Shown here piece after piece: positions 3,801 through 47,632 of a stretch of 64,000 nt of DNA; the first letter of the stretch is position 1; every line of letters begins with the position of its first letter. The position numbers were made by a program, and so were the translations under genes. The notes below the pieces were generated by a model. The model saw only the letters and a list, made by a program, of their open reading frames with translations, ran no database searches and was not told the DNA's origin. The stretch covers positions 58,346,034 to 58,410,033 of the forward strand of contig NC_092372.1 in NCBI RefSeq assembly GCF_030028105.1. Reading direction: 5' to 3'. The stretch comes from Mobula birostris (Eukaryota).

Positions 3801-6398
3801 ATAATTAGCATGGTAGCATTGCAATTTGTGCAAATGTTCTACAGCATCTGTGATCATCCATCAGAGTTCAATTCCCACGGCTGTCTACAAGAAGTTTGTA
3901 CATTCTCCCCGTGAGCTTCTTCTGGGTGCTCTAGTTTCTTCATAGATTCAAAAGTAATTTGATTTAGGGTTTATAAGTTGTTGGTGTCAGAGGCATAGCG
4001 ACCTGTGCGGGCTGCCTTCAGTACAATCCTCACATATGTTGGTTATTGATGTAAAAAGCAACACATTTCACTATGCTGCAATTGCCTTATGTGACAAGTA
4101 AAGGCTGGTCTTCAAAAATAAATTCTTCCAAAAAGACTTCAGCAGCAATGCTCTTTGACTCATTTATACAGTTAGAAACAGGTTCCATGGACCATTACTT
4201 TAAACCAACCATAATGCCTGTCGATACCACTCCTACTTTCCTGTATTCATTCCATGTAGCTTTATGCCCTGTTCATTCAAGTAGCAGCCCAAAAACTACT
4301 TAAACATTACTGTTCATGCCCCCAACACCTCCATATGCCGACGAAAATCTACCCCTGCGGACTCCTTATAAACTCCCCCCCCATCCATTTTGAATCTATA
4401 TCCTCTAGTTTTAGAGGCTCCTGCCACGGAAAACAGTTACTGGCGATCTTGCTTAGCCATGCCTTTTAATTTTATACCCTTATTCCCCATCACTTTCCAG
4501 CTTTCTTCACTGCAAGGAAAACAGACCGAGCTGATCCAATTACTCCTGATAACTCAAGATTTGCAATTCAGGCAAACACCCTGTGAATCTTTTCTGCATC
4601 CTCTCATTACCTTTCATGTGCGCTGACCAGAACTCTAAATGAAGCCAAACCAAAGTTTTGTACAACTGTAACAAGGCAACCCAATTCTTGTACTCCCATG
4701 TCTTGGCAGATGAGGCAAACTTATCATATGGATTGTTCATCACCCTATGCATTTTCATTTTCAGGGAACTATCTAATTTTAACAAAAGGTCTCTTCTGTT
4801 CTTACCAGCGTCCTGCAGTAGTCTGAAGACAGACACGGTAGTTTTAGTGGAGATAGCGGCCTTGCCAACCATTTGGTCTTTCCTGGCTGCATTTCCAGCC
4901 GTAATCTGGTCCTTGGATTTGATCAACACTTGTCCTGGACAATCCAGTAGTTCATAGACTTCCTTGGTCTTTCCTTCATTCAGTTTTTTCCCTATTTTAT
5001 GTTCTGAAAAAATGTTTTAACTTCAGATGTTTAAAAAGATCATTGGATGAAACTGAAGAAACAGCCTTACAGACAATAGTCCATTTAACAAGCTGTTGCA
5101 CTTGTCAGACTTACAGGGTTTATGTATCAGGAGGGAAATCAGTGGGTAGGGAAAAGTGCTACTCTTGCCCCTATATCTCTTCCCTCACTACTATTCAGGG
5201 ACCAAAACAATCCATCCAAAACAAAACTTCACCTGTGAGTCTGTCAGAGTCATCTATTGTACTCAGTGCTACCTATGTGGCCTCCTCTACCTCAAAGGAC
5301 CTCTTCTCTGTCTGCAGCAAAAGGCAGGCTCTTCCGATGGCTAGCCATTTCAATTTGACTTCACATTCCCATTCTGGCATATCTATCCAAGGCTTCCCCT
5401 ACTGCCATCATGAGGCAAAACTCCAAATTGAAGAAGCAACACCTTATACTCCATTATGGCAGCCTCCAACCCAATGGCATGAACACCAATTTACCCATCT
5501 TCTGGTAGTCTCTCCCCCCACCTTCCTTCTTTTTCTATTCCCCATTCTGGGTACCCTTCCACCTCACCTCCATGTGGTTTCCCTCTATGGACCACTGACC
5601 TCCAATATTCTTTCTTCAGCCCTTACCACTTCCATCTATTCCCCCTTTACCTGATTTCACCTATCATCTGCCAGTTTGAACTCCTCCCACACCCCCACCT
5701 TCTTATTCTCGTTTCGGACCCTTCCTTTCCAAGCCTGATACAGGGTTCAGTACGAACTGAAGTGTTATTCCCCTCCATCGATACTACCTGACTCGCTGAG
5801 TTTCTCCATCATTTTATTGCATCTGCAGAAGCTTGTGTTTAAAATAGCCAAATCATTTTTTAAAAATTTCAGGCCGGTTAAGTCCTGCACCCTAGAGTCA
5901 CTCTAGCTAGGATTAGTAATAGCTGTTGGTCGAGACCGTTTCCCAGGACAGCCTCAATTTTCATCAAGGTATGCGCCAGAGAGCAGCCCAAGACAACATT
6001 AAAGTTCGCGAAGCTGTTCTCCTCTTGCTTTGCATTTTAACAAAATCTCCTCCCGCAAAATCATGAGAGCTCAGACCACGAGACTCAGACCGCTTCTATC
6101 CCGCTATTATCACTTTTGTACGGACCTCTCAAATGTGAAAAGATAAACTTAATCGCCTAATTTACTTCGTTGTAGTCCTTATACTGTTTTTGCCTACTTG
6201 TACTTTCCCTTTAACCACAACATAATCTGCATTTCCTTTGTTTTTTAACTATCTTTGTTAACCTGTGTATGGCACACAAAGCACAAGCTTCTCTTTGTAC
6301 ATGTGACAATATAGTAACCAATTACCAAAAGGTGGCACATTGCGAAGGAGAAATTATCAAACAGGAAAACTTTTTCATTTACCTTCAATGTTCTCCAT
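738..6398 (-). CDS. PAICS: Bifunctional PAICS (SAICAR synthetase / AIR carboxylase), 5' part; gene continues beyond the left edge
   Basis: Coding exons 6383-6398, 4806-5003, 3606-3784, 1916-2095, 1726-1839, 738-821 splice in frame with GT-AG ends. Product: [25 protein letters not shown]...[14 protein letters not shown]...[21 protein letters not shown]...DDANNDPQW...LVDMKVEFG...[14 protein letters not shown]...[10 protein letters not shown], the vertebrate PAICS SAICAR synthetase domain. Confidence 0.97.
1726..1839 (-). CDS. PAICS: PAICS coding exon 5
   Basis: 114 nt after a 76-nt intron; [38 protein letters not shown]. Confidence 0.97.
1916..2095 (-). CDS. PAICS: PAICS coding exon 4
   Basis: 180 nt; [17 protein letters not shown]...[19 protein letters not shown]. 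Confidence 0.97.
2560..3130 (-). repeat. Degraded CR1 LINE 3' fragment
   Basis: CCATCCCAGGCAACATTCT...CTTCTGCACCCTCTCCAG, as in better-preserved CR1 copies in this window. Confidence 0.6.
3606..3784 (-). CDS. PAICS: PAICS coding exon 3
   Basis: 179 nt; [59 protein letters not shown]. Confidence 0.97.
3855..4105 (+). repeat. V-type tRNA SINE remnant
   Basis: B-box-like GAGTTCAATTCC and conserved core GTTTGTACATTCTCCCCGTG...GGGTGCTC. Confidence 0.6.
4190..4745 (-). repeat. Degraded CR1 LINE 3' fragment
   Basis: Translates to [19 protein letters not shown]...[11 protein letters not shown] (CR1 ORF2 C-terminus). Confidence 0.7.
4806..5003 (-). CDS. PAICS: PAICS coding exon 2
   Basis: 198 nt, ttttcag|AA...G|gtaag; [40 protein letters not shown]. 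Confidence 0.97.
5140..5840 (+). mobile_element. Penelope-like element 3' part (GIY-YIG remnant and tail)
   Basis: [27 protein letters not shown] motif, ASHFN, pyrimidine-rich UTR, degenerate hammerhead near 5734-5760, GCATCTGCAGA end. Confidence 0.75.
6383..6398 (-). CDS. PAICS: PAICS first coding exon (ATG GAG AAC ATT GAA G|gtaaat)
   Basis: 16 coding nt (phase 1) match the 2-nt overhang of the next exon; good Kozak context (aagATGG); acceptor tttcag at 6417 gives exon 6383-6416. Confidence 0.8.
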
Positions 6399-7266: not shown

Positions 7267-7394
7267 ATGGAGTTTGAAGAGTCGGGCATCGGTGAGGAGT
7301 GCGGCGTGTTCGGTTGTGTGGCGGCTGGCACGTGGCCGACCCATCTGAACGTCCCGCACGTTATCGCCTTGGGTCTGGTAGCGCTGCAGCACAG
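7267..7394 (+). CDS. PPAT: PPAT exon 1
   Basis: [21 protein letters not shown]...LVALQHR; AG|gtaagt. Confidence 0.97.
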
Positions 7395-10300
7395 GTAAGT
7401 GCCTGGTGCAGACCGAGACCGGGAGCCTCTGCAGAGTCCTCCCCTCATTCTGTAGTTTTACAGTGGGGAAATCGGTGTTTTCCTTTTGTTCCAGTCTTTG
7501 CACAAACTCGTTAAACATTGCAGCTGTTGGAGATCTGAAACCAAACCAGAAAATGCAAGGCTGGGCAATTCATCAGGTGGCACGTGGAGGCAGAGAAACT
7601 TTTCAAGCCTTAAGACCTTCCGGCTGATCTCCTTGACGAGACTATTTAGATATATGGGGCGGGTAGTATAATTTTTTTCGTGTTATGTCTTTTAACTGCA
7701 AAAGCAGACCAACGCATGTGCTGAAATTCGATCACAAGCAAATCCAACAACATCTGTGGAGAGAGGAATAGAGCTACTGTAATGTTACCGCTGGACTATT
7801 TTGACATTATTGATTCCGGGGGGAAAAAAATTCACTGGCACCATTTGCAAACTGAATGGTTTGCTCAGTGAAAATCAGCTTCTTATAAACTTTTTGCACA
7901 TTTGTCAGTGCAGTAGTGATATTCAATATTTACAGTAAAATGCATTAAAACATCATTTTGGCCTCTTGGTTGAATCTATTGCAACTAGTTCATAGTGTTA
8001 AATGCAACAAAGTTAATAGCTTCAAGCATCGTTTTCCTGCCCTATCCCTACATCCTTTAATTAACTGAACTACAGATGGGAGAGTTTTATTAAGTTAGTG
8101 CGTCGCATTTTCATACACTTGCAGTGCCAGTCCTGTGCATAAAAGAAAGTTGCATTCCTGTGTTTGGATGAAGTTTTTTCCTTACTATTTTATTAGTTAA
8201 TTTTTATAAAATTAACTAATTTTATGGTCTATTTTCCAGAGCAATGTTCTGACCACATGTATTAGCTTCCGCCAATGTAATCTAGTTATTGATCATGTGG
8301 AACATACACACCATTCCAACCAAACATTTCTCTGCACGCAAGCTTTCTCTTACACATATATCTTATTTATCCTTATATATTCTTTTGTTCTTTATTTCAT
8401 TCATTAACGGGATTTATGTCTCGCACAAAGGACAGTTGTTATGGTTGCTGGATGTTTCATGCAGCAAGATCTAGACAACATGCAAGCAAGGGCCAAGTAG
8501 TAAGTAACAGGCATCCCTCAAAGGTGCTAGACAGTGACCATCTCCAAAAAAAACACCTACCTTCAAAGTTCCGAGTAAGTTTATTGTCAAAGTACAGATA
8601 TGTCAGCATATACAACCCTGTGATGCATTTTCTTGTGGGCATACTCAATAGGCCTAATAACTAAAATCAATGAAACGGCAGACCAGCCAGGGTATAAAAG
8701 ATGACAAATTATGCAAAAACAAAAAGAGAAATAAATAGCAATAATTATTGAAAACATGAGATGAAGAGTCCTTGAAAGTTAATCTATGGGTTGTGGCAAC
8801 AGTGAAGTAATGAGGCAAGTGAAGTGATTTACTCTGCTTTAACAGTATTTACTACTAAATTGTTCACTGAATTGTCTTGAGTGCCATCTTTCTCTCAAAG
8901 CTCAACTAGATCAGCTGCATAAATACTTAGGCTAAAATAATCAAAAATTACTTGCTTTCTGGTTCCTCGGAACCTATCCAGCATTTAAAAGCCAGAAATC
9001 AAGATCATAGTAGGATTTTCTTCACTTGACTGGTTGAGTACTGTTTCTACAACATGCAGGAAGCTCAGTCCCATCCAGAATAATGAAGCCTGGTTGATTG
9101 TCATTCCAGCGCCATCTTAAATGTTCAATCTCCATCGATGATATTCTGTGGCTACATTAACTTCTACAGTAGCCACTTTATTAGGGACACTTGCTCATTA
9201 ATGCAAATATCTAATCAGCCAAACGCAGCAATTCAATGCGTAAACACATGCAGACATGGTCAAGAGCTTCACTTGTCATTCAGACCAAATACTAGAATAG
9301 GGAAGAAGTGTGATCTAAGTGACTTTGACCATGGAATGATTGTGTCAGAGATGGTATAAAAGTTGCTGGTGAATGCAGCAGGCCAGGCAGCATCTCTAGG
9401 AAGAGGTGCAGTCGACGTTTCAGGCCGAGACCCTTCGTCAGGACTCACCTCTTCCTAGAGATGCTGCCTGGCCTGCTGCATTCACCAGCAACTTTTATGT
9501 GTGTTGCTTGAATTTCCAGCATCTGCAGAATTCCTGTTGTTTGTGTCAGAGATGAGGTGGTTTGAGTATCTCAGAATCTGCTGATCTGGGATTTTCATGC
9601 ACAGCAGTCTCTAGAATTTACGGAGAATTGTGCAAAGAAACATCCAGTGAGCAGCAGTTCTGTGGGCGAGAATGACTTGTTAATGAGAGAGGTCAGAGGT
9701 CAAGATCGACTAGTTCAAACTGGCAGGAAGGTTACAGTAACGCAGGTAACCATGCATTACAACAGTGATGTGTAGAAGAGCATCTCTGTACACACATGTC
9801 GAACCTAGAAGTGGATGGGCTACAGCAACAGAAGACCACAAACGTACACTCAGTGACCACTTTATAGGTACAGTTAGTGAGAGCTTTATCGTCATTGCTG
9901 AGGACAACGATATTGCAATGCTACTTTGTTCAATGCAAAGCAGCATAAAAGCACAATGACTAAATTTAAAATAATGTCTGAGTAATTTAGAGTGATATCT
10001 TGAGTTACAGCAGAATTAAAAAACAAGTAGTTCTAAAATTGAAAGAAACAGTGGCCACACCATTCAAGTGTTGCACATGCCGATGTTATAAAATATAATG
10101 GTTAAACATTAAATAGACTCAAGGGGACACATGAGAGTGTAGTGGTTAGTACAGTGCTTTACAGTACCAGCAATCCTTGTACCAGTTGATCTAGTTGTTC
10201 AATTACTGCACCTGCCTGTAAAGAGTTTGTACATTTTCTGTGTAACTGCGTGGGCTTCCTTTGGGTGCTCCGGTGTCCTCCCACAGTTCAAAGATGTACC

Positions 10301-13300
10301 AGTTGGTAAGTAAATTGGTCTTTGTAAATTGTCCCTTATTTAGGCTAGGATTAAATCGGCAGTTGCTGGGCTGTGTGGCTCGAAAGCCAGAAGGGCCTAC
10401 TCTGCACTTTATCACAGTAAGTAAAATTATGCTCATGTATTGTACTTGGAGGTTGCCCATACTGCCTGTGAACTATAGGTGGATGGAGGGGCATTGCTCA
10501 TTTGCACGATAGCCCCGGGGAGGGGTGGGGGTGAAAGCTGCTTTTCAGTCTGAATATCCATGCAAAGATATCTCTGTACCTCCTACCAGATGTTAGGAGA
10601 TTGAACAGGTTATTACTGGGGTTGGATGAGTTCACTGCGATTTTTCCGAGCCCGCTGTAGACATTGTGAGTTGTGGATGGTTTCCATATAAGCCCATAAG
10701 ACATAGGAGCAGAATTAGGCCCATCAAGTCTGCTCTGCCATTCAATCATGGCTGATCCTTTTTGTTAATCTCCTCGACCCCAGTTCTCAGCCTTCTCCCT
10801 GTAACCTTTAATGCCATGTCCAATCAAGAACCTATCAATCTCTGCCTTAGATACACCCAGTGATCTGGCCTCCACAGCTGCATGTGGCAACAAATTCCAC
10901 AAATTCACCATCTTTTGGCGGAAGAAATTTCTCTGCATCTGTTTTGAAAGGGCGCCACTCTATCCTGAGGTTGTGCCTTCTTGTCCTGGACTCTCCCACC
11001 GTGGGAAACATCCTTTCCACATCTACTCTGTCTAGGCCATTGAACATTCGAAAGGTTTCAATGAGATCCCCCCATCCTTCTAAATTCCAGCGAGTACAGA
11101 CCCAGAGCCCTCAAACCTTTCTCGTATGATACCCCTTTCATTCCTGGAATCATCCTTGTGAACCACCTCTGGACCCTCTCCAATGCCAACACATCTTTTC
11201 TAAAATGAGGATCCCAAAATTATTAACAATACTCAAGGTGAAGCCTCACCAGTGTCTTATCACATCCTTGCCCTTGTATTCTAGACTTCTTCAGATGAAT
11301 GCTAACATGGCATTTGCCTTCCTCACCACTGATTCTGATTCTGATTCTTTCTGATTCTCCAAGTTGTACATTATGTTGACTTGGAAGTGCATCATAATTC
11401 CTTCATGATTGCTGGATCTAAGTCTTGGAATTATCCAACAAACAGCTTTATGGAGTACTTTAACCAGAAAACTACAACAGTTATAGAAGGTGGGTTGCCA
11501 CCAGCTTTTCAGTAGGAATTGGTAATAAATATTTACCTTGCTATAGAAACATAGAAAATAGGTGCAGTAGCAAAATGATTTTCCTCTTGAATTCCATGTC
11601 TCTAATTTGGTGTGCGCTTTTCACACAGTTCCGTGTAGTGAGTTTGATGTTATGATCACTGTATGAGTACTTATTTCAAATAAAATATTTAATGGGAAAA
11701 TGTACTGGTGACCAGATTTGATCAAACTCTTGGTGCTGTGGAAGAGCTTAAAGACTAGAATCTTCCATGCCAAGGAAAAACTCCCAGCACAGATTCCTTC
11801 CGGTGCTTCCACTAAAACTCAGGTGTAACATGCTAAATTATAAGAAAAAAATAAACCAAAAAACTGAGTGCAATTCATTTAATTTTTTTTCAGTTAACCC
11901 TGCAATACTACTGATGGATTGGAAATGCTCCTAGTGCCAGTGTAATTATGTTGTTTGGCAATTATGCATGATCACTGATTGCATCAGAGGTAGTTTAGTT
12001 CTTGTATCCTCCACATTCCTATTTGAAAAGCTATTCAAAGGTTACACAAATAGTGTTCCTGACTGATTTGTTCTTTCTAGGCAATTAGTTCTGCAAAAAA
12101 AGTTTTTCCGTTACAGTTTGCTTCCTGAGTGCTTTCATACCTCTAACTATTCACTCCTTTTCTTCCCGTCAGACATTCCAAAACCTCTTTCTTTTGAAAA
12201 ATATTTGGAAATTTGCCTTAGAAATGCACTACAAAGATGCATCAATTTTTGTTTGATAATAAGAAATAGATTGTGATATTTGTTGCTCTATGACAAACAT
12301 CGTTATCAGAGTGGAACTGAAGCCAGGGAGACCAGTTAATATGGAAAGGTTTGTGTATGTTCAGTGGCTGTTTTATCTTGTAGATCTTCAGCATTCAATT
12401 TAAGTTTGCCCTTCTCAGCAGCATTCAGGATCTTTGCAAATTAAAGACTATTTTGGGTCCTCCTTGTAACTTCTATTTGCACTTTCATAAGAATGGTAGA
12501 AATAATACAGAAAAGCTGCTGTCAAATCCCGAGCAATTGTTCAAAAGAACAAATGAAGAGGAAGCCAAAGATCAGAGTCTGGATTAGAAAGTTTGCAAAT
12601 TCTTGTAGTGGAATGTGAGATGAAGCCAGAAATGGCTTCTGATTCCGGCAGGGAGCAGTCAAATTACTATGTATTAAGTATTATCAAATTGACCACATAT
12701 TTTCTACTAAATAATCAGACCCAAATTAAAAGAAACTTTAGGCAATGTCTTTGATTAATGTAACCAATGCTTGTCCTTGCTGGTCTGCGTATTGCAGATA
12801 CACATACCTAACAATATTCATTTTGCAATTAATAATTTCGGTTTTTGCAGTGTACTGCTGCTGCAACACGAACAAATTCAACATCATATAAGACGATGAT
12901 AATTCTGATTCTGAAATTTCAATTGCAGAGATATGGGCATTGGTGTTGGAGAGAATGAAAGGGAAGATCTGTGATAGGATGGTGATGCAGAGAGAAAGTA
13001 AATGGTTTTAAGTGTTGGTGCTGTCTGAATGAGAGTGGTAAAAGGCAGTGAATAACTTAAGCTGTGCCTGCTGGATGTGTGAGTAGGAGTTATAGAATGA
13101 AGTCTGAAATATTAGAGGTCTTACTGGAAATGGGATGAGAATCAGTGTTTGCAGATATTATTTTTTAATAATATGGGCACAGGCTAAGAAAAGCTTCAAA
13201 AGGTGAATGGAATGCTGGACTTTGTCTCAAAATAACAAATCAAAGCCCTGTTTAGACTGCATTACCCATGCTTAACATTCATAACAGGTATCTGTATGTT

Positions 13301-16300
13301 TCAGCTAAGGTTGTTTATATGTGGGAAACAATTTTGGTGCACATTCTGATTTGAGGAACATACCTCGTAAATCTACTTCATTTAATTTTGCAGAATACCT
13401 GGAAAGATAAGTTCACTATGGTGCTTGTTCATCATGTTTAAGTTGAAGCATTAGTGTAAAGCTTTGTGAGAAATGATTGAGAACAAATGTTAAGCATATT
13501 AATATGAAATTTAAGTGTATATTTACTTGGAATAGTTCTACCTCTTTGTTGGACTAGGATGTTCGAGATTAGTCAAATATATTAGGGTTATACAGAGAAA
13601 GGGGTTACTGACACTAAGACTTGATAGCCTGATGGTTATCCAGTGAAAAAACAACTGCGTAACAATGTTGTTTGCTCTTTGCTAGATTAAACCTATTTAT
13701 CAACAACTGCATGATTTATTTGTACTACAAAGTTCATTGTGTTACTTACACAGAGCACATTTTTTGTGTGTTAATAGTTTAATCTATTCCTATCAATATA
13801 AAATTGTGAAATAATTCATTTCCTTCTGAAATGTCTTCCCTCTGTTATCCCTCTGACCCGTAAATCTTTCTCCCGATGTAATAATTAATTTTGTTGTCTT
13901 TACTTTTCATTGAGTAAACTGTATTGATTATTATTTCAGATTTCCAGTGTCATAGAAAAAACAACTGCAGTAATGTTGCTTTTAATTTGTTAGCCTGAAT
14001 TTAATCTCAATTGTATAAACCAAATGTGCAATGCAAGATACACCAAAGTGTCTTGCCTATCAATTTTTAAGGCAGTAGTAAGGAATACAATTGTTTAACA
14101 AGAGAGATCCAAACTTCCTGTAGCAGATAAAAATATTAAGCGATTTATCTATGAGCTTTTGGGTATTACACTCTATTGCCAATCTCGGGTTCGTAATAGT
14201 AAGAGATTGTCGAGAAGTGATAAAATTGGCTATTGTGTGGTATTTTGCCAGATATAACAAACAGGTATGGAAGTAGTACTGCATGCATGAGACCTTCAGA
14301 ATATTTGTTTACATTGGAGAGTTTTTTGATACAAGATCCTCTTGCAATAGAAGTAACTCCTGAGTGTTAATTGTACATTATATTTTTATTAGTGGCTTGA
14401 ATTTCTACTTAAGAAAACTCAAAAGTTATGGAGTGATGAGGGTAATTGATTTCAGTGTAAAAACACTTGATCTCGTTTCTAAACCAAGTACTTATTATAA
14501 TGATTGTTGAAACTTCCAAAAATATTTTACAGAGGTCAGGAAAGTGCTGGAATTGTGACAAGTAATGGGAGTTCCTCACCATCATATATGACACACAAGG
14601 TATGTCTTAGTTGTTACATCATATTGATCTTTACAATATAAAGTAGTTAATTTAGTAGATTTTATTTGTTTACTCAATTTACAAACTAATTTCATTCTTC
14701 TTTGGGGCATCGAGGAATGAAAATTGTAGAAGTTAACATGTAGAAGTTAAATGTAGAAATTGGCTGAGTTTCTGGCATACATAGCTTATATATAGTGATC
14801 TTAAAAGTTAAGCAGTTGTATTCACTGTTCCCTCACTGCTCACCCACTAGAACGTCGGTCACCTGGCCAGGCTCATAACCCAACACCAGGTCAGATTCAG
14901 CTTCTCCTCTTATTGGACTATGTACGTATTTATTAAAGAAGCCCTCCCAATGCACCTAACAAGTTCTGCCAAATCTAAAGGTTTTGCACTAAGAGGTCCC
15001 AGTTTATATTAGGGAAGTTGAAGACCCCCATGACAACTACCCTATTTTCATATATAAGAGAAAATTTGCAGATGGTGGAAATCCAAGCAAACACACAGAA
15101 TGCTGGAGGAACTCAGCATCTATGGAAAGGAGTACAGCTGACATTTCGGGCTGAGAACTCAGCAAGCCAGGCAGCATCTATGGACAGGAGTACAGCTGAC
15201 ATTTTGGGCTAAGACCCTTCTGTACAACTGGAGACTTTATCTTTTCAATGATTTCATGTTCCCTGGCCCCGATCACCTTACTTGCACTATGGATGTCCAC
15301 TCCCTTTGCGTCTCCATCCCCCACCAGGAAGGCCTCAAAGCTTTCGGTTTCTTTCTAGACACTAGACCCACTGACTGACAGCTACCTGGACTATACCTCT
15401 TCCCACACTGTTACTTGTTAAAATGCCATTCCCTTTTCTCAATTCCTCCATCTCCACCACATCTGCTGTCAGGATGAGGCTTTTCATTGCAGAGCTAAGG
15501 AGTTGTACTCTTTCTTAAAAAAAGGGGGCTTCCCTTCCTCCACCATCAACACCCCCCTCAACCACATCTCTTCCATTTCATGCACGTCTGCCCTCACCCC
15601 ATCCTCCCACCACCCCACCAGGATAGAGTTCCTCTTGTGCTCACCTACCACCCCCACCAGCCTTCGTGCCCAGCACAAAATTCTCTGCAACTTCTGACAT
15701 CTTCAGCAGGATCCCACCAGCAAGCACATTTTTCTCCCTGCACTTTCTGCTATCTGCAGGGATCCCTATGCGACTCCCTTACCATTCGTCCCGTCATCCC
15801 TTCCCACTGATCTCCCTCCTGGCACATCCTTGAAAGCAGAACGAGTGCTACCCTTGGCACTACATCTCCCTTGCTACCATTCAGAGCCCCAGACAGTCCT
15901 TCCAAGTGTAGCGACACTTGACCTGTGAGTCTGTTATGGTCATCTACTGTATGTCGGGGAGACCACCTCACTGAGCACCTAGGCTCCATCCACCGGAAGA
16001 AGTGGTATCACCCACTGGTCACCCATTTTAATTCCACTTCCCATTCCCATTCTGATATGTATGTCCATGCCCTCCTTTACTGTTGTGATGAGGCCACACT
16101 CAGGTGGGAGGAATAACACCTTATATTCCATCACGGTAGCCTCCAACCTGATGGGATGAACATCAATTTCTTAAACTTCCGGTAATGCTCCTTCACCATT
16201 CCCCATTCCTATTTCCCTCTCTTATCTCATCTCCTTATCTGCCGATCCTCCGATCTGAATGTACTCCCTCCACCACCACCCTCTGCCTTCTGCAGGCAAG

Positions 16301-19300: not shown

Positions 19301-22300
19301 TCACAGAGTAGAAACACAACTTTATGATAAATATGCATTGAATGCAGTTGCTTATGTTTAGTTTCCAAAATACATTCAGAGAAACATTGTAAATATCATG
19401 AATTAAGAGGATTTTTTGTTCCCCTTTGAAACTGTGATAGTTTTTAACTCAACGTTACGGAAATCAAGAGCAGCTCTAAAAATGTTTTTTTTTAATAGGG
19501 AATGGGCCTCGTAAGCAATAACTTTCATGAAGATCAGATAAAAAAGCTTCGCAGTGGAAATCTGGGTATAGGACATACACGATATTCTACATCGGGTATT
19601 TCCGAGTTACAGAACTGTCAGCCATTCGTGGTGGAAACACTTCATGGAAAGATTGCTTTAGCTCACAATGGAGAATTGATCAATGCAAAACAATTAAAAA
19701 TGAAGGTATGGCATTGGTCTAATTACATCTGATGAAGTAATAATAAATGAAAATGTATTTTGAACTATTGTCTTTTAGTAAATGTTTACAACACAAATGA
19801 TTATGGATGAATAACTGAGATGAGATCCAGGTCCAAACTTCATTTCCTGGTAAATACGTTACGTAAGTGTCATGTTTGTTTGCAAGTAGCACTTGCCTCA
19901 TGTAAACACAAGAGATTTTGTAACTGATGGAAATCCAGATCTGCACATAAGAAATGCTGGAGAAACTCAGCAGGCCAGGCAGCGTGAATAAACAGTTGAC
20001 GTTTCAGGCTAAAACTTTTTCAGGACTGAACTTGCCTTGTGTCGCAGTTTTCAATACAGCTCCCATTTCACAAACTTGAGCTCAAACAGTACTGATGTTC
20101 CATTTCTGTAGTGAGGTGTGCATAAAGTAGGAAACATAGTGTTCTGACACAATTGAAGTTTATGGTGGGGGTTGATGAGGCCAATGACTAATTGTTCAGC
20201 TGCTGTTTCTTGTCTTGCACACTTAACTCAGCCTTGAGGTAAATTGTGCTGAAAGTAAACAATGGTGTAACTTTGCACCTCATTGTTATATTAATCTTTC
20301 ATTCATGTATTTATGGTCGCTGAAAAATTAGAGCATAAAGGATCGTTTGAGGTCAGTGAGACACCGCAACTAATGGTCTCTTCCTTGTAGAGAAGAGGCC
20401 TCTGTTGCAATGCTAATGGGTCATGTGTGATTGCTAGTAATTGTCTCATGGTCGCATGACCTTGTGCCATTAGATAGATAAATTGTAAATATAACTCTTG
20501 TTGCCCCTGAAGTATGGACATACATTGAAAACATATTTGACGGGCCAGCTGGTGGCGCAATGACATCGGTGCCGGACCTGAGAGTGGAGGTTCCCGGGTT
20601 CGAAACCAGTGGGGTCCGCTCCTGAGTAATTTTCCATCCGTGCCGGGTTGAGTGTGGAGATCGCAACTCGACCTCGTAAAGTAAAAAGGGGAAAATACTG
20701 TGAAAATGTCTGTGTGAGGAGTGGCACGCCACACAGTCTGTCTCTCGCTCCACGCCTTGTAAAAAGCCATGAAAAAGACATCATCGCGGACACGCACACG
20801 CATAGACGCACATGCACAGACTTGCACGCATGCAGGCACATGGCAAAAAAAAAGAAAACATATTTGACATCCAAGGCAGCCAGTTATTGCACAGGTATTT
20901 ATAGATGAAACAGAACCTCAAATTTAATGCAGCCAGTACAATTTGTTTGCTTGGCTTCCATGTGGCAAATCACCAAGCAGTAGCCCTAACAAGATTTGCA
21001 TTTCTGCAATTCACTGTTATAGATGCAATCTGAATTGAAAGATCCACTGAGAAGACATCAACTCCATTGCAAATTTTTCCACAAAACTTGCAATGGAGTG
21101 TTCAAGTTGGAGCATTGCCTAAGCACTAGATCATCAAGAACGTGCTGGCTCTTGTAGAATAGTCCCATTTGCTTGTTTTATTCTCAGCCCTGTTCAGTTT
21201 TTTCCCTCATGCCTATCCAACTTCCTTGTGAAATCATTGATCATTTTGGCTTTCACCAACATTATAGATGAGTTTGACTAGATTATCATTCTACTCACTG
21301 CACTTCAGTAAAGAAAAGTTCTTCCTCATGTATTACTCAAAGCCTTGAGTCTTTGTCTCTTAGCCCTTGCACTAGAAGCTTAATCAGAACAGTTCTCCTT
21401 TGCTTGACTTATGACAAACAGGTCATATAATCTTATCCTCATCACCTCTGTTACAGCTTTGATAAGGTATCTTGCTCTTGGATTGTCTGCTATAGAGCTT
21501 AGAAGCTCAAAATAATAATACTCAAATGTCAATATTAAAGAAAATGTTAAAACAGGTTATGTTTTGCAAAACCCTGCAGTTTCATTCCATCTGCAACCTG
21601 ATGGCATGAACATCAATTTCTCCAACTTCTGGTAGAGTCTCCCTTGACTCCCTCCTTCTATTTTTCAATTCCCCATTCTGGTTATCTTCTCACCTGCACA
21701 TCACCTCCCTCCGGTTACCTCCTTCCCTTTCTTCCATAGTCCACTGTCCTCTCCTATCAGATTCCTTGCTCTTCAACCATTTATCTCTTCCATCTCTCCC
21801 CTCCATCTTCTTATTTTATTGCTTCTCCCCTTAACACCCATCTTCGCCTACACATGGTCTCGCCTATCAACTGTCAGCTTGTTCTCCTTCTTCCTTCTGC
21901 TTTGTTTTTGTCTCTGCTCCCTTTTTTTCCAGTCCTAATTTAGGGTCTCATATGTCGACTGTTTATTTCCCTCCGTAGATGCTGCCTGATTTTCTGAGTT
22001 CTTCCAGCACTTTGTGTGTTGCTCAAGGTCTCTAGCCTCAACAGAATCTCTGTGTTCATCAATTTCAGAAGACTTATTTAAATTTATTCATTGTAGAAAT
22101 TGGACAGTTGGCTGAATCAAATGTTAAAATTTGCCATCAAATCAGTTACTTCCATGGAAATTTCACATTCTCCTTTATTTGGAATAAGCTGAACTTTGAA
22201 CTTGTACCCCCAGAATTGATTAACATTACAAACAATTGTGTGTAGTAAAGAATCCCAATAGTTTCTATATAATACGAGAACAAGCTTTTCAAGCTTTACC

Positions 22301-34300: not shown

Positions 34301-37300
34301 GACATTATCTGCTATTGCTTAATTTTGGTCACTAGGCATAGAAAAGGTAAGGACCTAATAAATGAGTGCAGTTGTACTCTTCGTTTTCTGATCATGCTGT
34401 TCTTGGTAGGGATAAAGTAGAACCATTAATCTCTCTCACGTTGGTGCAGATTATTGAATTATGTAAAACTGTAAGATCTGTGCATTATTCTGTACAACAG
34501 AATACATTTATGCAATGTCTTTAATGTCATAACACACAACAAAACAGTTCACAGAAGCATCAAACAAAATTTAATATAACCTATATCAGGAGATTTAGGG
34601 CAAGTGAGAGTTCACCATAGAAATTTACAATGCAGAATGAAGCGATTCATTGTAGCACCTCCCTGCCAGCCCTGGACAGCTTCTAGACATATCTCATTTC
34701 CTGGAGTTTCTACTTTGTCTTAGCTTGGTAGGTAATTATTTCCAGATCTGCCAAAATGGAGAAATTTTCTTCTTAACTACTTGGTAATCTTTCCACAATT
34801 ATTTTATTTTTCATTTGTGCTTCCTATTTACTGACTTCGCAGCTAAAGAAAATGCCTTCTTCTATCTTGGTTATCGATTGCCTTAAAATTTTATATCCCT
34901 TGAATTATTTGATGAGGAGAGCAATAATGGAGTATTAAGTTTTCTGTTAGCTTTATTTAAATCTTCTGCATGCAAGCTAGCTTTTGTTGAAGATGGTCAT
35001 TGCATATCACTTTAATGACCACTTATCATATTGTTATTTACTATTTATCGCTTCATATCTGAAACTGGTCTAGGTCTTGCTTACTGCATGCAGTTGTGCA
35101 CTATGTTTGCTGATTTGTCCTCACAACCATCTAGCTGGCACCATAGCAGCGTGAGTTGTTTCCTGTGAAAACATCTCCGTACTCTTGGGTTGTAAAAAAT
35201 CATTTGCTGCTTCATTTGACAGTAGAAATAATCATTTTGTGTAGTTTTTTGATGGGCTGGGTTTAAAGAATAGAGTGGTGATACTGAATGTGACACGCCA
35301 TTAGTTTGCCACCCCGGTGTAGCAAGTAGAGTTGAAGTTATAATACTGAAGGGAGAGTTGTACTAAAGTAAACAATAGTCTAACATAGGTGCCTTTACTA
35401 TCCAGGTAGCCCATAGATGAGTATAGGGCCACGAAAATTACCTGCTTCTATGGTAGGTGAATTGCAGTGTATCAAGATCATTTGGGAGGCTGAAGCTAAT
35501 CTGTGCCATGACACAAAGCACTCTCAAGGTTCATTTTCAAGGTTCTTCATTATGGTTCATTTCAGAGCCACTGGCAGTAGTCATTAAGACACCTTAACTT
35601 GTTTTTCTTAAGTACCTGTATAACAGTGGTCTTGAAAAAGATGGAAACCTCAGATCAAAACAGGGAGAGAATAAAAATGTTTGCATTAGGAAACAGCTCT
35701 GCTTCTAAGGAAAGGAAGTTAATTGATGAAGCAGCTGAAGATAATTGGATCTACGATACTGCCCTGAGAAGCTACCGTGAATCTGTAGGATTTGATTTCT
35801 TGATCTCCATACCCATGTTCCTTAATATGTGTTATGACTTCAGCGATTGGATTGTTTTTCCTCTGATGTCCAATGACATCAGTTTTACCAGGCTCCTTGA
35901 TGCCATACTATCAAATGCTTCCTTGATGTGAGGGGGAGTTGCCCTTTTCTTTCCTCTAAAATTATTTTAATTGATGCTAGAAGTAAGGCTAATAATGACG
36001 TCTTAGGCAGCGTGATCCTGACAAAACTCAAAATACACATTGAAGAGCAGGTACTAGTGAGTAAATGGCCCTTAATGTCATCATCGATGACACCTTGCTC
36101 TGAAGATTAAGTGCACATTGGTTGAGTGGTAATTACCCAGATTGAATTTATCCATTAGTAATTCCAGAACAGCTCTTAGGATCTCTATTAAACTCATTTC
36201 TCTTCTCTATCAATGACCTGGATAAATGTGTTGTATGAATTGCAGATACATTTGCAAATGACAACTGATGATGTATCTGAAATGGTAAGGATGAAAGGGA
36301 AGCTGTATCGGGAAGTTGTCATTTAGTGTAAAAAAAAAACATTGTGTGATTGACTTTGGGTCTCGTTTCCGGAATGAATAAGGGCAATGCGAGATTACAT
36401 GCTTGAAGGTGTTTAGAAAGAGATTGGAGCAATAAATGAGACTGGTTTTCAGGAATATGTTTATATCTACTATGAATGTTTATATTTTGACATTACTACC
36501 TAGTGCCATTTATGATTTTTTTTCAAACTTCACTGAAAACGTATAAATATTATTCGTCTTACTATTTTTTCTAGGTATTTTCGTGAAATATTACCAGGAG
36601 AAATAGTACAGATTTCTAGGGATGGAATCCAGACACTTGATGTTGTACCAAGAGCTCGGGGAGATCCACCTGCATTCTGTATCTTTGAGTATGTCTATTT
36701 TGCCAGACCTGACTCCATATTTGAAGGTAATAATGAATTTTATCTGAATTCTTTGGACAGCCATTTAAAAAAAAATTTCCAATTAATACAGTTGTAAAAT
36801 GTAACCTGGTTCACTAAATCTTCATTCAGCATTGCTGTAGTTAGAAAGTATTTTTAAAATCTTGTAATAAAGGTGGTTTGTGTGTTGTTACAAATTACCC
36901 TTCAAATGAATAAAAACTATACTTGTCTGCTGTAGTAATTACATTTTGGCTGGTGCTACTTTGACAGTTCTGTTTATAGTTACAGTACAAGTGGTCCTAC
37001 TAAACAAACCTACATTTTGACGAAGGGTCTCGGCCCGAAATGTCGACTGTACCTCTTCCTAAAGATGCTGCCTGGCCTGCTGCGTTCACCAGCAACTTTG
37101 ATGTGTGTTGCTACATTTTTGTTTTTGTTGAATTGAATTGACTTTTACTTATATCCTTCATATATATGAGTAAAAATCTTTGCATTACCTCTCCATCCAA
37201 ATGTGCCATTTATAGTAATTTATAATAAATAGTATGCCTTGCTTATGCACTCAATGTTAAATAAAATTTGTACTTTGTGTGTAGAGTGGTGTACAAATAA

Positions 37301-43300: not shown

Positions 43301-46300
43301 TTTTGACGCTGTGCCCTCTGGTGCTATATACGCCACAATAGGAAGCATCCTCTCCATGTCCACTCTTCCTAGACCTTTTGATATTCAATAGGTTCCAATA
43401 TGACCTCCCCCGCCACCGAACGGGCCCAAAGCCATCAAAAGCTCCTTATATATTAACCCTGGGATCATTCTCGTGCATCTTTTCTGGTCTCACTAATGCT
43501 AGCACATCCTTTTCAAGGAAACAAAAACTGCTCACAATACCCTAAGTGTAATCTGACCAATACCTTGTAAAGCCTCCGTACTTGCAACTCTGAATCCAAA
43601 TGAGCTTTCAAGGTTTTTTGATTGAGCTCAAGAATTGTGATGATAATAATTAAGTCAACTGGAAACTGAAAACAATAATTAAATGAATGAAATAGCAATA
43701 GTTCTGTCCAGTATTTTAATGTATAGAAATGAATAGCTAGGCCCAATATGACATTTTTTATGCCCTTTTAGACCTCTGTCAGATGCCCAATCTAGGTGAC
43801 TGTAGTCTCTTTAGTTCAAGTAATGAAAAGAAAATACAGAAAATCAGAAGTAGCAGAGTTGAATGATTTGAGTGGGGTTTGGGTTCATTCACATTGCTAT
43901 GGAGCAGCAGTGCTAATAACTAGTGCCTTAGAGAACTAATTGCAAAATTGTTCTGGTGTTGTACAGTAAGTACAATATTGAATTGGACTGTATCTTCAAA
44001 CATACTCTGTTTTCAGACAGTTGTGTAATTTTATTTTTGGACAGCTGTATTCTGGATTTCTAGCCTGGGCATCAAGTCTTTATGTACACCCAGTAGCCAC
44101 TTTATTGGGTACACCTATTCATCTGCTCGTTAATGCAAATATCTAATCAGTCAATCATGTAGCAGCAACTAAATGCATAAAAATATGCAGCATTGTCAAG
44201 AGGCTCAGTTGTTCAGAACAAACATCAGAATGAGAAGAAATGTAATCTAAGTTACTTTGATTGTAGAATGATCGTTGGTGTCAGATGGGATAGCTTGAGT
44301 ATCTCAGAAACTGCTTATGGGGTTTTCATCCACAGTGGTCTAGAGTTTACAGAGAATCGTGCAGAAAAACAAAAAACATTCAGTGAGCAACAGTTCTGTG
44401 GGTGAAAATACCATGTTAATGAGGGAGGTCAGAGTTAACACTGGTTCAAGCTGACAAGATGATGATGGTGATTCAAATAACCATACGTTACAACAGTGGT
44501 GTGCAGAAAGGCATCTTTGAATGCACAACACACCTAACTTTGAAGTGGATGGGCTATGGCAGTGGAAGGCCACGAACATCCCTTCAGCGACTCCTTTATC
44601 AGGTACAGGATGTACCTAATAAACTGGCCACTGAAGGTATACTTACTCTCTTTCTTGTAACAAAACGGATCCTGACCCGGATCTGGGCCGTACCCTCCAA
44701 ATATCCGGACCTGCCTCTCAGTTTTTTTGCACTGCCTTACTTTCCATTTTTTCTATTTTCTATTTATGATTTATAATTTAAAATTTTAATATTTACTAAT
44801 TTTTACTATTAATAAATTTAATATTTATAATCCAGGGAGCGGGAAGCACAGAATCAAATATTGCTGTGATGATTGTACGTTCTAGTATCAATTGTTTGGC
44901 GACAATAAAGTATAAAGTATAAACTATAAAAAATCTGAAAATTCAAGCAGAAACAGTAAAAGGTTTTGTGTGGTACATTTAGTAATGGTTTGAACTAGAA
45001 CTCTACTATTTTGTGTAATTAATAGTTTATTATTCACATTCTAAATACTTTATAAGCAGTTATAATTAGTGCCTAACTCTTGAGTTGGGTGATTTTTTAG
45101 TTACTGATTTTTGAAATGATTCACAGATTTTACGATGGATGTGGTGTAGAATTGTAGCTACTTTTACTTCCGTACTTTGTCAGTCTTTGTTTTGCATTCC
45201 CTTATCCTGACATTTCTTTATTGCTGTTTTATTATATTAATTCCCCATTTTTAATCTTTCTATTACCTTATCATACTGGAGGTAAATCTCAAGGTAAATG
45301 GTGTTAATATTCATTATTGTTCATAGGAAGATTCACAACAATTCACCATAGATGATCATCAGCATGAATCCACATGTATCTATACATTGAGCCAAATTGT
45401 CCTTCATCCAGCTTGACCCTTGCACTATGACATCAAAAGGTCTGGATTAGGTGGTAGTAGAGACGCTGTTCCCAAGAATCTGCGGATATGGCCTCACTGT
45501 AAAGGGACGATCTATTACAACTGAGATAAGGAGGAATTTCTTCAGCCAGGGGGTGGCAAGTCTGTGGAATTCATTGTCATAGAGGCCAAGTCATTTGGTG
45601 TATTTAAGCAGAGACTGAAAGATTCTTGATTGGTAAGAAGGTTAAAGGTTACAAGGAAAAGACAGGAGAATGGGATTGGAAACAACATCAGCCATGACTG
45701 AATGGTGCAGCAGACTTGATGGGCCCATTGGCTCAATTTTGTTCTTCTGTTATATAGCCTATTCTCCTGGCTCCATTTCCCTTTTGTGCCACAACAGGAC
45801 CATTGGCCCTGGTGCTGCAGTTGTGAAGCAGAATGGGTTATTAACTAGGGGGTAGATCACGAGGCTCCAGAATATCCTCATAGTGAGAGTTCACCACTTG
45901 CATGGTTTGCTCTAGATATCATTGATCAAAATTTAAAAATGGTTCTAAAGGACTGGTAAATTAAAATATTAAGAAAGAAAACTGAGCAAACCATTAATCT
46001 GTGCTCTTCAGATGATTGGGATTGCACTAATAGCACCAGTTAATAAATGCATAAAGTTAAGGGACTAAATATAAAGTGCATGTGGTTCTTCAACTCAGTA
46101 CATTTGTGTAGCTGCCAGACTTAGTGGTGAGTCCTGCAGCAAAGTGGCCTTCATGTTTGACCTTTGGCTTATCTAAAGAGCTGACAGTCAAAGATGAGTA
46201 CATTTTGGTCTGCTGAAAATAATGGTAATGCAAGCTGCATTTTCTTTTTTTTTTAACTTGAGCCTCCCTTTGAGAATTACTAGGAGCACTGAAACAGCTT

Positions 46301-47632
46301 CTGGGGCTTACTGACCTACATATTTTCTGAAATTACATAAGTAGGTACAAAATCAGAGGCGGCACAGTAGCGTAACTGTTGGTGTAACTCCTACAATTCT
46401 GCTGATGTCTGTAACAAGTTTGTGTGTTGTTCCTGTGATTGCTTGGGTTTCCACCAGGTGCTAATGTTTCCGCCCACATTCCAAAGACATAGGTTTGTAG
46501 GTTAATTGGTCACATGGCTGTAATTGGGCTGTGCAGGCTTGTTTGGCCAGAAGGGTCTGTTGGCGCACTGTATCTAAACAAGATAAATAAATTTCATCTG
46601 TTGGTATTATGCAACACACACAAGATGGTGGAGGAACTCAGCAGGCCAGGCAGCATCTATGGATGGTCTTGGCCCAAAACGTCAACTGTACTCTTTTCCA
46701 TAGATGCTGCCTGACCTGCTGAGTTCCTCAAGCATTTTGTGTGTGTGGCTTGGATTACCAGCATCTGCAGATTTTTCCTCTTGTTTCTGTTGGTATTATT
46801 TTATTTTTCAGAGATGTTCGTTCCTGCTGTCAATTATAAAAGCCATGTACTTTGTTATGTAAATAAATGTGCATATTGTATTTATTAAGTAGATCGTCCA
46901 TAGATTAGTTGAAGGGAAATAGAGGGATTTTAACCATAAATTTCTCAATTTTTGCCAGCCTCTAAAAGCACTATTACTGGACAGTCTGGCACATTGTTAG
47001 GTATTTTAGCACAAACTTTACTGAAAACAATTTTTATTGAACAAATTTCATACTAAATAATACTGAAAATTACCAAAATATGGTGAGAAAATGAATTTGT
47101 GTAACCCTGTGGAACTGGAGTGGTGAAGTTGCTTGGATTATATAGTTGTACTATTAAGTAATTTTTATTTAAGATGTGAAGGCATCCTCTAAGAACATGA
47201 AGGCGTTCTGTTACTTGTCAAATTAAGTATGTATAACTTTTCTGATGTACTTTGTGTTGCATTAGATTTGAGACTTTTATTACTTATTAATAATGCATTT
47301 GCATGAGTTCTTTCATTCAATCTTTATTCATATTGTACAAGATTCATGTTGTGGGCAGTGCTGCTTTTATCCATATAGTCATCATAAAATGACTTAACAG
47401 TTTGCAGCTTCACTTAATAATAACCACTTGTTGTTATCCCTTTTGTTTTGAAGGTGCATCTAGTGTGATTTATCTTTCTGTTGATGGATTGATATCTGCT
47501 GTACAAGAGGGAATTAAGAGGCAAACAAATTCCATACTATATGATACTGAAAATGACAAAACATCAGTGAGACAAATAGGTCATTGTACAGCTTGTCTCA
47601 CAGGAAAATATCCTGTGGAGCTTGAATGGTGA
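7267..47632 (+). CDS. PPAT: Amidophosphoribosyltransferase (glutamine PRPP amidotransferase), complete, 11 exons, 513 aa
   Basis: Exons 7267-7394, 14533-14599, 19499-19705, 28353-28465, 31223-31368, 33933-34011, 36575-36726, 37421-37548, 39062-39283, 39517-39637, 47454-47632 sum to 1542 nt in frame. 11-aa propeptide [11 protein letters not shown] then catalytic Cys; QHRGQES, GHTRYST, AHNG, PRPP loop [12 protein letters not shown], Fe-S cysteines (FCIFE, FPCYMG, CTAC), C-terminal YPVELEW. Confidence 0.98.
9354..9540. mobile_element. Short 5'-inverted Penelope tail insertion forming a 53-bp perfect hairpin
   Basis: 14-bp TSD TTGTGTCAGAGATG (9340-9353 / 9541-9554); arms 9356-9408 and 9446-9498 are exact reverse complements. 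Confidence 0.9.
9409..9445 (-). ncRNA. Minimal type I hammerhead ribozyme (Penelope-associated)
   Basis: Minus strand reads AGUC-CUGACGA-AGG GUCUCGG CCU-GAAAC-GUC-GACU: all core nucleotides, stem I AGUC/GACU, stem II AGG/CCU, palindromic ACGU stem III, GUC cleavage triplet. Confidence 0.8.
10130..10415 (+). repeat. V-type tRNA SINE
   Basis: A box GTAGTGGTTAG, B-box remnant GTTCAATT, core TGCGTGGGCTTCC...GGGTGCTCCGGTGTCCTCCCACA. Confidence 0.7.
10490..11330 (-). repeat. Rex1-like fragment plus CR1 3' end
   Basis: [11 protein letters not shown] (Rex1 C-terminus); [26 protein letters not shown] (CR1 C-terminus). Confidence 0.75.
14533..14599 (+). CDS. PPAT: PPAT exon 2
   Basis: 67 nt; [22 protein letters not shown]; ttttacag| ... 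|gtatgt. Confidence 0.95.
15060..16232 (+). mobile_element. Penelope-like element: inverted tail (15060-15230) plus RT C-terminus/GIY-YIG body
   Basis: YLDYTSSH...[22 protein letters not shown] and [10 protein letters not shown] remnants; leading segment is the reverse-complement tail with a tandem duplication. Confidence 0.8.
16235..18080 (-). mobile_element. CR1 LINE ORF2 fragment (APE endonuclease and RT N-terminus)
   Basis: MGDFNFP, LDLVL, SDH; [42 protein letters not shown]; frameshifted. Confidence 0.93.
19499..19705 (+). CDS. PPAT: PPAT exon 3
   Basis: 207 nt; GMGLVSNNF...[11 protein letters not shown]...[15 protein letters not shown]. Confidence 0.97.
19925..20030 (-). repeat. Penelope tail with degenerate hammerhead
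   Basis: Minus strand CAGTC CTGAAAAAG...CCTGAAACGTC AACTG followed by CTGCCTGGCCTGCTGAG. Confidence 0.7.
20542..20853 (+). mobile_element. Young tRNA-derived SINE
   Basis: Perfect 15-bp TSD GAAAACATATTTGAC (20527-20541 / 20854-20868); A box TGGCGCAATGA 20553; B box GGTTCGAAACC 20597; CA-rich 3' region and A-tail; CpGs retained. Confidence 0.88.
21580..22060 (+). repeat. Penelope-like 3' end
   Basis: [13 protein letters not shown] end of ORF, pyrimidine tract, degenerate hammerhead CAGTCCTAAT...GTCGACTG, AGATGCTGCCTGA. Confidence 0.75.
22591..27878 (-). mobile_element. Near full-length CR1 LINE (ORF1 zinc-finger/SGNH esterase, ORF2 EN-RT), inactivated, inserted in an older CR1
   Basis: ORF1 from ATG 27686 ([15 protein letters not shown]...ARCVELQLL), [31 protein letters not shown]2 AITETW...KFADD...[13 protein letters not shown]. 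(TTCTATGT)-like tail at 22591. Flanks 22300-22590 and 27879-28020 are contiguous older CR1 sequence. Confidence 0.92.
24667..25930 (-). mobile_element. Rex1/Babar-type LINE RT fragment nested in CR1
   Basis: [58 protein letters not shown]; ATTCTG-like tail. Confidence 0.88.
28353..28465 (+). CDS. PPAT: PPAT exon 4
   Basis: 113 nt; [37 protein letters not shown]. Confidence 0.96.
30172..30948. mobile_element. Non-autonomous DNA transposon (Tc1/mariner-pogo-like MITE)
   Basis: Imperfect TIRs CAGTGAATTCTAGTTAATT / AGTTAACTGGAATGCACTG; its right part recurs at 55265-55509. Confidence 0.7.
31223..31368 (+). CDS. PPAT: PPAT exon 5
   Basis: 146 nt; [37 protein letters not shown]. Confidence 0.96.
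32511..33381 (-). mobile_element. Solo LTR (871 bp)
   Basis: TG...CA termini with short IR TGTTACGA/TCGTCACA; 5-bp TSD TAAGG (32506-32510 / 33382-33386); AATAAA (~32595) and TATA-like motif (~33140) on the minus strand. Confidence 0.88.
33933..34011 (+). CDS. PPAT: PPAT exon 6
   Basis: 79 nt; [25 protein letters not shown]. Confidence 0.95.
36575..36726 (+). CDS. PPAT: PPAT exon 7
   Basis: 152 nt; [15 protein letters not shown]...[18 protein letters not shown]. Confidence 0.97.
37019..37110 (+). mobile_element. Minimal Penelope tail insertion truncated inside the hammerhead core
   Basis: 9-bp TSD CTACATTTT (37010-37018 / 37111-37119); begins GACGAAGGGTCTCGGCCCGAAATGTCGACTG. Confidence 0.85.
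37421..37548 (+). CDS. PPAT: PPAT exon 8
   Basis: 128 nt; [42 protein letters not shown]. Confidence 0.97.
39062..39283 (+). CDS. PPAT: PPAT exon 9
   Basis: 222 nt; [22 protein letters not shown]...[27 protein letters not shown]. Confidence 0.97.
39517..39637 (+). CDS. PPAT: PPAT exon 10
   Basis: 121 nt; [40 protein letters not shown]. Confidence 0.97.
41210..42515 (-). mobile_element. 5'-truncated CR1 (RT to 3' tail)
   Basis: [34 protein letters not shown]; same subfamily as 22591-24000. Confidence 0.92.
43050..43580 (-). repeat. Older CR1 3' fragment
   Basis: [16 protein letters not shown]; [10 protein letters not shown]...RRNFF. Confidence 0.75.
44087..44637 (+). mobile_element. Tc1-derived MITE
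   Basis: Ends CAGTAGCCACTTTATTGGGTACA / TGTACCTAATAAACTGGCCACTG with flanking TA; HTH remnant [27 protein letters not shown]. Confidence 0.8.
44667..44930 (+). repeat. LINE 3' UTR fragment with AATAAA and (AAGTATA)n tail
   Basis: CpG-containing start, T-rich body, GACAATAAAGTATAAAGTATAAACTATAAA end. Confidence 0.55.
45440..45750 (+). repeat. CR1 3' end
   Basis: GAGATAAGGAGGAATTTCTTCAGCCAG...TCAGCCATGACTGAATGGTGCAGCAGAC. Confidence 0.7.
46357..46592 (+). repeat. V-type SINE
   Basis: GGCGGCACAGTAGCGTA head; GGGTTTCC...CCCACATTCCAAAGAC core; AAATAAAT tail. Confidence 0.7.
46611..46785. mobile_element. Second 5'-inverted Penelope tail hairpin insertion
   Basis: 14-bp TSD TCTGTTGGTATTAT (46597-46610 / 46786-46799); imperfect arms ~46611-46663 and ~46697-46749; loop contains the 3' half of a hammerhead (GGTCTTGGCCCAAAACGTCAACTG). 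Confidence 0.85.
47454..47632 (+). CDS. PPAT: PPAT exon 11 (last coding)
   Basis: [19 protein letters not shown]...[17 protein letters not shown]. Confidence 0.97.

Follow-up and report, generated by a model that had tools for sequence, protein, structure and literature searches.

Penelope-like elements (PLE) that bear an endonuclease (EN+) leave insertions in which a terminal repeat (pLTR) is accompanied by an adjacent inverted, 5'-truncated copy, with a tail of 30–40 bp at one end and a target site duplication (TSD) (PMC3846280, PMC8557442). The layout of an inverted copy plus one tail is thus already published, and the second of these sources describes the way in which PLEs make inverted structures as undefined. 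For minimal hammerhead ribozymes (min-HHR), no cleavage was seen with lone copies and low cleavage with dimers; the pairing of stems I and III is intermolecular in the double hammerhead (PMC4209133; review PMC6765202). With the Poseidon element PAc of Anolis, the two strands of the target are each cut and extended in vitro, and reverse transcription begins internally at two sites bounding the tail. The PAc protein is a predicted dimer, and its hammerhead cleaves only with protein and is dispensable for insertion (PMC11167929). Retrozymes are described as units arranged head to tail in tandem, each of which has a hammerhead, that yield circular RNAs (PMC7229834; 10.64898/2026.07.22.740005).

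Here we analysed a 64,000-nucleotide stretch of Mobula birostris DNA (the window) that holds a 187-bp insert with a hammerhead motif. We are confident that this insert consists of two short pieces from the end of an abundant PLE encoding reverse transcriptase (RT) and GIY-YIG, both 5'-truncated and set head to head between TSDs; it likely arose in one event and is likely immobile, and we infer that it was primed from two nicks. As a fragment of a Penelope-like element it is unremarkable, and it faces backwards in an intron.

Architecture of the insert

The insert was located in the 4.0-Gb assembly, and its arms and TSD were read directly from the window (Table 1). The two 53-nt arms are 100% complementary with a spacer of 37 nt, just as a preliminary description of this DNA had reported. 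The 14-mers that bracket the insert are identical; however, the right duplication shares its first 3 nt with the element's natural end, so the true TSD is 11–14 bp rather than the 14 bp given earlier. On the minus strand the insert folds with −128.3 kcal/mol (z = −16.9, 0/200 shuffles as good), on the plus strand the hairpin reaches −126.7 kcal/mol. As had been noted before, stem I of the ribozyme runs on into the hairpin arms with one unpaired G.

Table 1. Features of the insert and of its host intron, in window positions
Feature	Position	Strand	Basis
PPAT intron 1 (host intron)	7395..14532	+	exon 1 at 7267-7394; donor GT at 7395; exon 2 begins at 14533
Host repeat with terminal inverted repeats, broken by the insert	9163..9871 (ends approximate)		second copy at ~44090-44608
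Left TSD copy (14 bp)	9340..9353		identity with 9541-9554
Two non-element bases at the tail-less junction	9354..9355		element match ends at 9356
Piece 1: 5'-truncated terminal-repeat (pLTR) fragment, element 0 to +89, tail-less end	9356..9445	-	93.5-96.6% identical to the pLTRs of five copies with long ORFs
Left hairpin arm, +37..+89 of piece 1	9356..9408		arm complementarity
Putative minimal type I hammerhead, predicted cut 9414/9413	9410..9445	-	sequence motif
Right hairpin arm, +37..+89 of piece 2	9446..9498		arm complementarity
Piece 2: inverted 5'-truncated pLTR fragment, +37 to about +131/+134, tailed end	9446..9540	+	alignment to element
PLE 'tail' of ~35 nt, bounded by the favoured 3' ends at about +98 and +133	9507..9542	+	3'-end histogram; L173, L174, L178
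Right TSD copy, first 3 nt common to element end	9541..9554		identity with 9340-9353

With the first nucleotide of hammerhead stem I as position 0, the insert joins 0..+89 (minus) to +37..+133 (plus), with 92–98% identity to the pLTRs of five copies with long ORFs. Piece 1 has the hammerhead and no tail, whereas piece 2 has the tail and no hammerhead; the arms result from the region +37..+89 that both pieces contain. The insert thus shows what marks an EN+ PLE insertion, namely pLTR origin, an adjacent inverted 5'-truncated copy, a tail at one end and a TSD. This agrees with the earlier view that the hammerhead is minimal, of Penelope type and dependent on a dimer, and that it was inserted by retrotransposition with duplication. 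With published EN+ PLE units the insert shares the head-to-head pLTR pieces, the single tail, the TSD around the whole, the min-hammerhead in the pLTR and a parent with RT and C-terminal GIY-YIG. It is unlike them in that both pieces are below 100 nt and no ORF is left; its TSD is 11–14 bp, compared with 8–10 bp in the rotifer examples described, and set against the published units, stubs of this size make up 24/91 sampled insertions here.

Palindromes can be homogenised or mis-assembled, and the hairpin might hence have formed after insertion, when a solo copy underwent gene conversion or a local inverted duplication, or be an assembly artefact. Contigs from four runs at 88% and from four at 99% were swamped by repeats, and no read record spanned the locus or either insertion junction. 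One 50-nt exact record, under a second species label, covers the central junction; it is too short to carry weight and is not specific to the locus. Nevertheless, each piece holds sequence that the other lacks, the TSD flanks the whole unit, and the one-tail rule and duplications of 13–15 bp recur at independent loci (see below), which makes a later origin or an artefact barely credible.

The parent element

Eight parent copies with long frames have ORFs of 768–1064 aa, with the hammerhead region ~290 nt downstream. These ORFs contain an RT (YIDD), a linker with CX5CxxC and a GIY-YIG domain with internal cysteines. In Pfam, neither the match of the 1064-aa ORF to RVT_1 (E=4e-5) nor that to GIY-YIG (E=8e-4) reached the curated cut-offs, and short PLE fragments gave no domain match. 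In near-full-length copies (L173, L174, L178) the tail continues into the 5' ORF region. A linker zinc finger and such motifs typify Neptune/Nematis-type PLE (PMC8557442). With CX5CxxC ahead of GIY-YIG, two cysteines inside the latter and a DKG motif in the ORF of L173, the parent would be a Neptune/Nematis-type PLE, a clade placement made by motifs alone.

PAc resembles the parent in three respects: the hammerhead lies at the pLTR–ORF junction, the tail is bounded by two favoured ends with ~35 nt between them, and 5' ends show no sign of falling at the cleavage site. It differs by belonging, as judged from the linker motif, to another clade, and in the sections of PMC11167929 at hand it is known from in vitro products, not from short genomic hairpins.

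The family is abundant, with 73,073 exact genome copies of the hammerhead 5' 15-mer and 60,361 of the arm 30-mer. A search with an RT fragment gave 38,420 first-look candidates, of which 150 were scored, and several copies had open frames of 850–1064 aa. These long frames indicate a young family or one with continuing activity. A second PLE family has the hammerhead 5' 15-mer in common and different flanks; it accounted for 10/30 sampled loci (L006, L007, L009, L016, L022-L025, L029, L033).

The hammerhead motif and its predicted folding

The minus-strand loop reads as a 4-bp stem I, CUGACGA, a 3-bp stem II, GAAA and a loop-less palindromic stem III. It thus has the conserved core, the short helix I and the palindromic, loop-less helix III by which min-HHRs are described (PMC4209133), and the loop sequence and putative cut site agree with those given in the preliminary description. 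The Rfam search proposed there found no hammerhead model at E<=10 in scans of 501 and 56 bases, and the insert yielded just hairpin-driven miRNA matches under gathering scores. Given this blank result, the hammerhead call draws on the conserved core of the motif and its agreement with the min-HHRs described in PMC4209133.

The preliminary description had regarded the hairpin as presenting the ribozyme. Folding predictions point to the opposite, namely that the hairpin would hinder it. In the monomer ensemble, stem I is paired in cis with a probability of 0.93–1.0 and stem II as drawn occurs at ~0.02; the fold drawn earlier lies 10 kcal/mol above the minimum. A double-hammerhead dimer would have to exchange the 53-bp arms and is placed 20.5 kcal/mol above two monomers, by a nearest-neighbour model that ranks such folds weakly, as it disfavours the active core in its native context too. 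By this prediction, cis pairing within the hairpin would hold stem I fast and oppose the dimer that the hammerhead needs, and the hammerhead in the insert is predicted to be inactive.

Hairpins of the same kind in the genome

Exact matches of the arm 30-mer were collected in the first 5.2 Mb of one chromosome (C1), where 102 matches corresponded to 91 insertions: 55 solo copies, 24 short hairpins and 12 longer inversions, two of which may be chance neighbours. Extrapolation gives ~14,000 short hairpins genome-wide, a rough figure that builds on one chromosome end and requires an exact 30-mer; the genome hence likely holds over ten thousand such stubs.

Solo copies were tailed or tail-less in similar numbers (26 and 29), whereas all 24 sampled short hairpins paired one tailed with one tail-less end (p=6e-8 versus random pairing). 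This one-tail rule was kept in 54/56 hairpins, comprising the 24 sampled ones and 32 of 33 junction loci (L040, with its left piece aligned to +40 only, was dropped). The loop belonged to the tail-less piece in 28 hairpins and to the tailed piece in 23, with three ties (n=54). Element copies in general end near +98 or at +133. TSDs of at least 11 bp were found at 22/33 junction loci and in 17/20 of the commonest junction class.

Arms tend to carry matching variants. They were identical in 13/54 hairpins with at least 30 nt of overlap, compared with 7.8% of random pairs, and agreed at the subfamily sites +49 in 44/49 (32 expected) and +87 in 38/45 (26 expected). The disagreements (5/49 and 7/45, respectively) could reflect either later mutation or two templates.

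The hammerhead lay wholly inside the loop in 5/24 sampled short hairpins. This can be understood from the 5' ends, since 31/67 short pieces begin within −6..+6. By contrast, starts within 6 nt of the cut were seen in 0/19 short solos and 7/48 hairpin pieces; piece ends derived from BLAST are off by a few bases. Piece 2 of the insert starts 5 nt downstream of the predicted cut, and we considered that it might be a cleavage product; given the counts near the cut, this was dropped as a general rule.

In the oriented locus L172 (6100-6140), a stretch that in long copies lies directly upstream of the hammerhead, the 5'-end hot spot falls on a pyrimidine tract whose last letters, CAG, stand two bases before stem I, and on an initiator-like hexamer, in keeping with splice-acceptor and initiator consensus motifs. 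In Penelope of D. virilis an intron ends at the 5' end of helix I (PMC4209133), and Penelope has an internal promoter within its repeat (PMC2377424). The hot spot may stem from a transcript start, a splice acceptor or RT stalling.

Is the insert a self-propagating unit?

The preliminary description had proposed a young, self-contained ribozyme–hairpin unit, retrozyme- or SINE-like and copied whole, and had suggested a genome-wide count of its junction. The exact 25-nt junction is not unique. It occurs at three loci, one with opposite polarity. At L002, the junction, polarity and tailed end are as in the PPAT insert, and whole-hairpin copying is possible for this pair; the insert also retains the tail, a likely RT start site. 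However, L002 has its own 13-bp duplication, its left end lies at +92 instead of +89, and its variants differ. At L003 the tail is on the hammerhead-bearing piece, which reverses the polarity. This locus (on C29) is a three-piece insertion with the same junction, in which a third pLTR piece follows in tandem and brings a hammerhead start of its own.

A looser pattern retrieved 541 junctions, so the exact one accounts for 3/541; the 100 listed were heterogeneous, with recurrent classes at short microhomologies. The commonest class (110 copies) differs from the PPAT insert just by being without the one-base loss and could come from cleavage as well as from microhomology. Among 20 of the 110 copies examined, polarity was 10:10, several subfamilies were represented, and both arms agreed at both subfamily sites in 20/20, the letters varying between loci. 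A copied master would fix the polarity; the 10:10 ratio hence indicates that hairpins arise anew.

The insert is non-coding, PLE-related and has a type I hammerhead motif like non-LTR retrozymes, for which the definition is a tandem array whose every unit has a hammerhead (10.64898/2026.07.22.740005). Unlike these, it is a single head-to-head inversion with one hammerhead and no copy family sharing its boundaries, and neither tandem units nor a tRNA-like gene were found at the insert. It gave no Rfam match of tRNA, 5S or 7SL type and maps to the pLTR over its whole length, which speaks against a SINE. We therefore regard a self-propagating unit as very unlikely.

How the hairpin may have arisen

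We propose that the element's enzyme would nick both target strands 11–14 bp apart and that each nick would prime a cDNA, one starting near +98 and the other at +133. Both cDNAs would stop early, their 5' ends piling up at the 5' edge of the hammerhead, and would be joined via the 4-nt self-complementarity of stem I with loss of one G. The hammerhead would thus fill the loop because a stop hot spot coincides with microhomology, and not by design. Priming from two nicks at two sites would account for the TSD, the single tail, the common template and the loop. L1 5'-inversions, which arise by twin priming, also place two opposed cDNA pieces between TSDs and join them at microhomology. In L1 the two pieces come from neighbouring stretches of the RNA; unlike these, the pieces here overlap, hence the hairpin.

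This mechanism is read from genomic end products, and a hairpin formed first and then trimmed by the endonuclease would yield the same ends. Such self-priming, in which a hairpin forms on an antisense template and the endonuclease removes the tail of one arm, has been considered for PLEs (PMC3846280, PMC8557442). It would explain the matching arm variants (44/49 at +49 compared with 32 expected; 20/20 in the commonest class), the use of stem I self-complementarity in the commonest junction (110 copies) and, through one-sided trimming, the single tail per insertion. On the other hand, simple snap-back of one target-primed cDNA must put the loop on the longer, tailed strand, and it cannot give the PPAT insert because each piece has sequence absent from the other. 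With the loop on the tail-less piece, here and in 28/54 hairpins, self-priming requires a longer free intermediate, and in vitro both strands were extended from two start sites (PMC11167929). Self-priming hence appears rather unlikely, if well worth keeping in mind.

Within two-nick priming, we tentatively suggest a more specific version, which we hold with less than even confidence: a two-subunit RT–endonuclease might prime both nicks on one RNA, with one active site per tail boundary. This would force one tail, arms from the same template and a stop at the 5' edge of the hammerhead rather than at the cleavage site. If true, the stubs would be a genomic record of PLE integration.

The host site

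The insert lies in intron 1 of a gene that we take to be PPAT from protein motifs, since exon 1 is found at 7267-7394 (plus) and exon 2 begins at 14533; the intron placement given earlier is thus correct. The host repeat broken by the insert, presumably Tc1-like, has a second copy that is 74–75% identical and unbroken across the insertion point, which supports a genuine insertion. At 4540-5016 (minus), a SAICAR_synt domain match marks PAICS, which stands head to head with exon 1 of PPAT in the arrangement conserved among vertebrates.

As double-stranded RNA of 53 bp, the stub might influence PPAT as an editing substrate, or else act as an antisense self-cleaving element. The plus-strand hairpin would indeed sit in the PPAT pre-mRNA. 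However, the hammerhead strand is antisense to PPAT, so that the catalytic strand is absent from this transcript, and a scan of the insert found no hammerhead core on the sense strand. Exon 1 is 1.9 kb away from the stub and exon 2 lies at a distance of 5 kb, the stub is one among thousands, and the same gene already holds an older hairpin of the same kind at 46611-46786. An effect on PPAT is thus extremely doubtful.

That older stub (46597-46799) belongs to a related subfamily with ~80% identity. Its pieces span +50..+98 (minus) and +13..+133 (plus), with an exact 14-bp duplication at 46597 and 46786. A decayed, complex insertion of a related PLE occupies 15056-16182, where inverted pLTR fragments (15056-15220) adjoin RT and GIY-YIG remnants with 58–71% protein identity. 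Further PLE scraps in the window lie at 5148-5502, 19904-20032, 37018-37112, 55169-55256 and 52986-53026, and comprise what is left of an endonuclease, near PAICS, and four short fragments of pLTR.

Age of the insert

The preliminary description took the perfect arms to imply a recent insertion. The arms show zero differences over 67 paired sites, which bounds their divergence at <=4.4% (95%). At a mutation rate of 7e-10 per base per generation, as reported for a shark (PMC10587355), this bound permits some 3e7 generations. Since identical arms also occur in 13/54 hairpins, the perfection stands, whereas a recent date is only loosely supported.

Implications for Penelope-like elements

The single locus matters little, being one among many inert-looking stubs. 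Our search, which covered the main texts of openly available papers, found no paper that counts such stubs or the one-tail rule, and the strict one-tail rule may be regarded as a modest new residue of this work. Counts at the population level, i.e., one tail in 54/56 hairpins, the loop on either piece, matched arms and 5' ends at the hammerhead edge instead of its cut site, provide targets for an in vitro integration assay. They also call for caution in genome scans, as genomes of this kind routinely yield ribozymes within perfect hairpins as a by-product.
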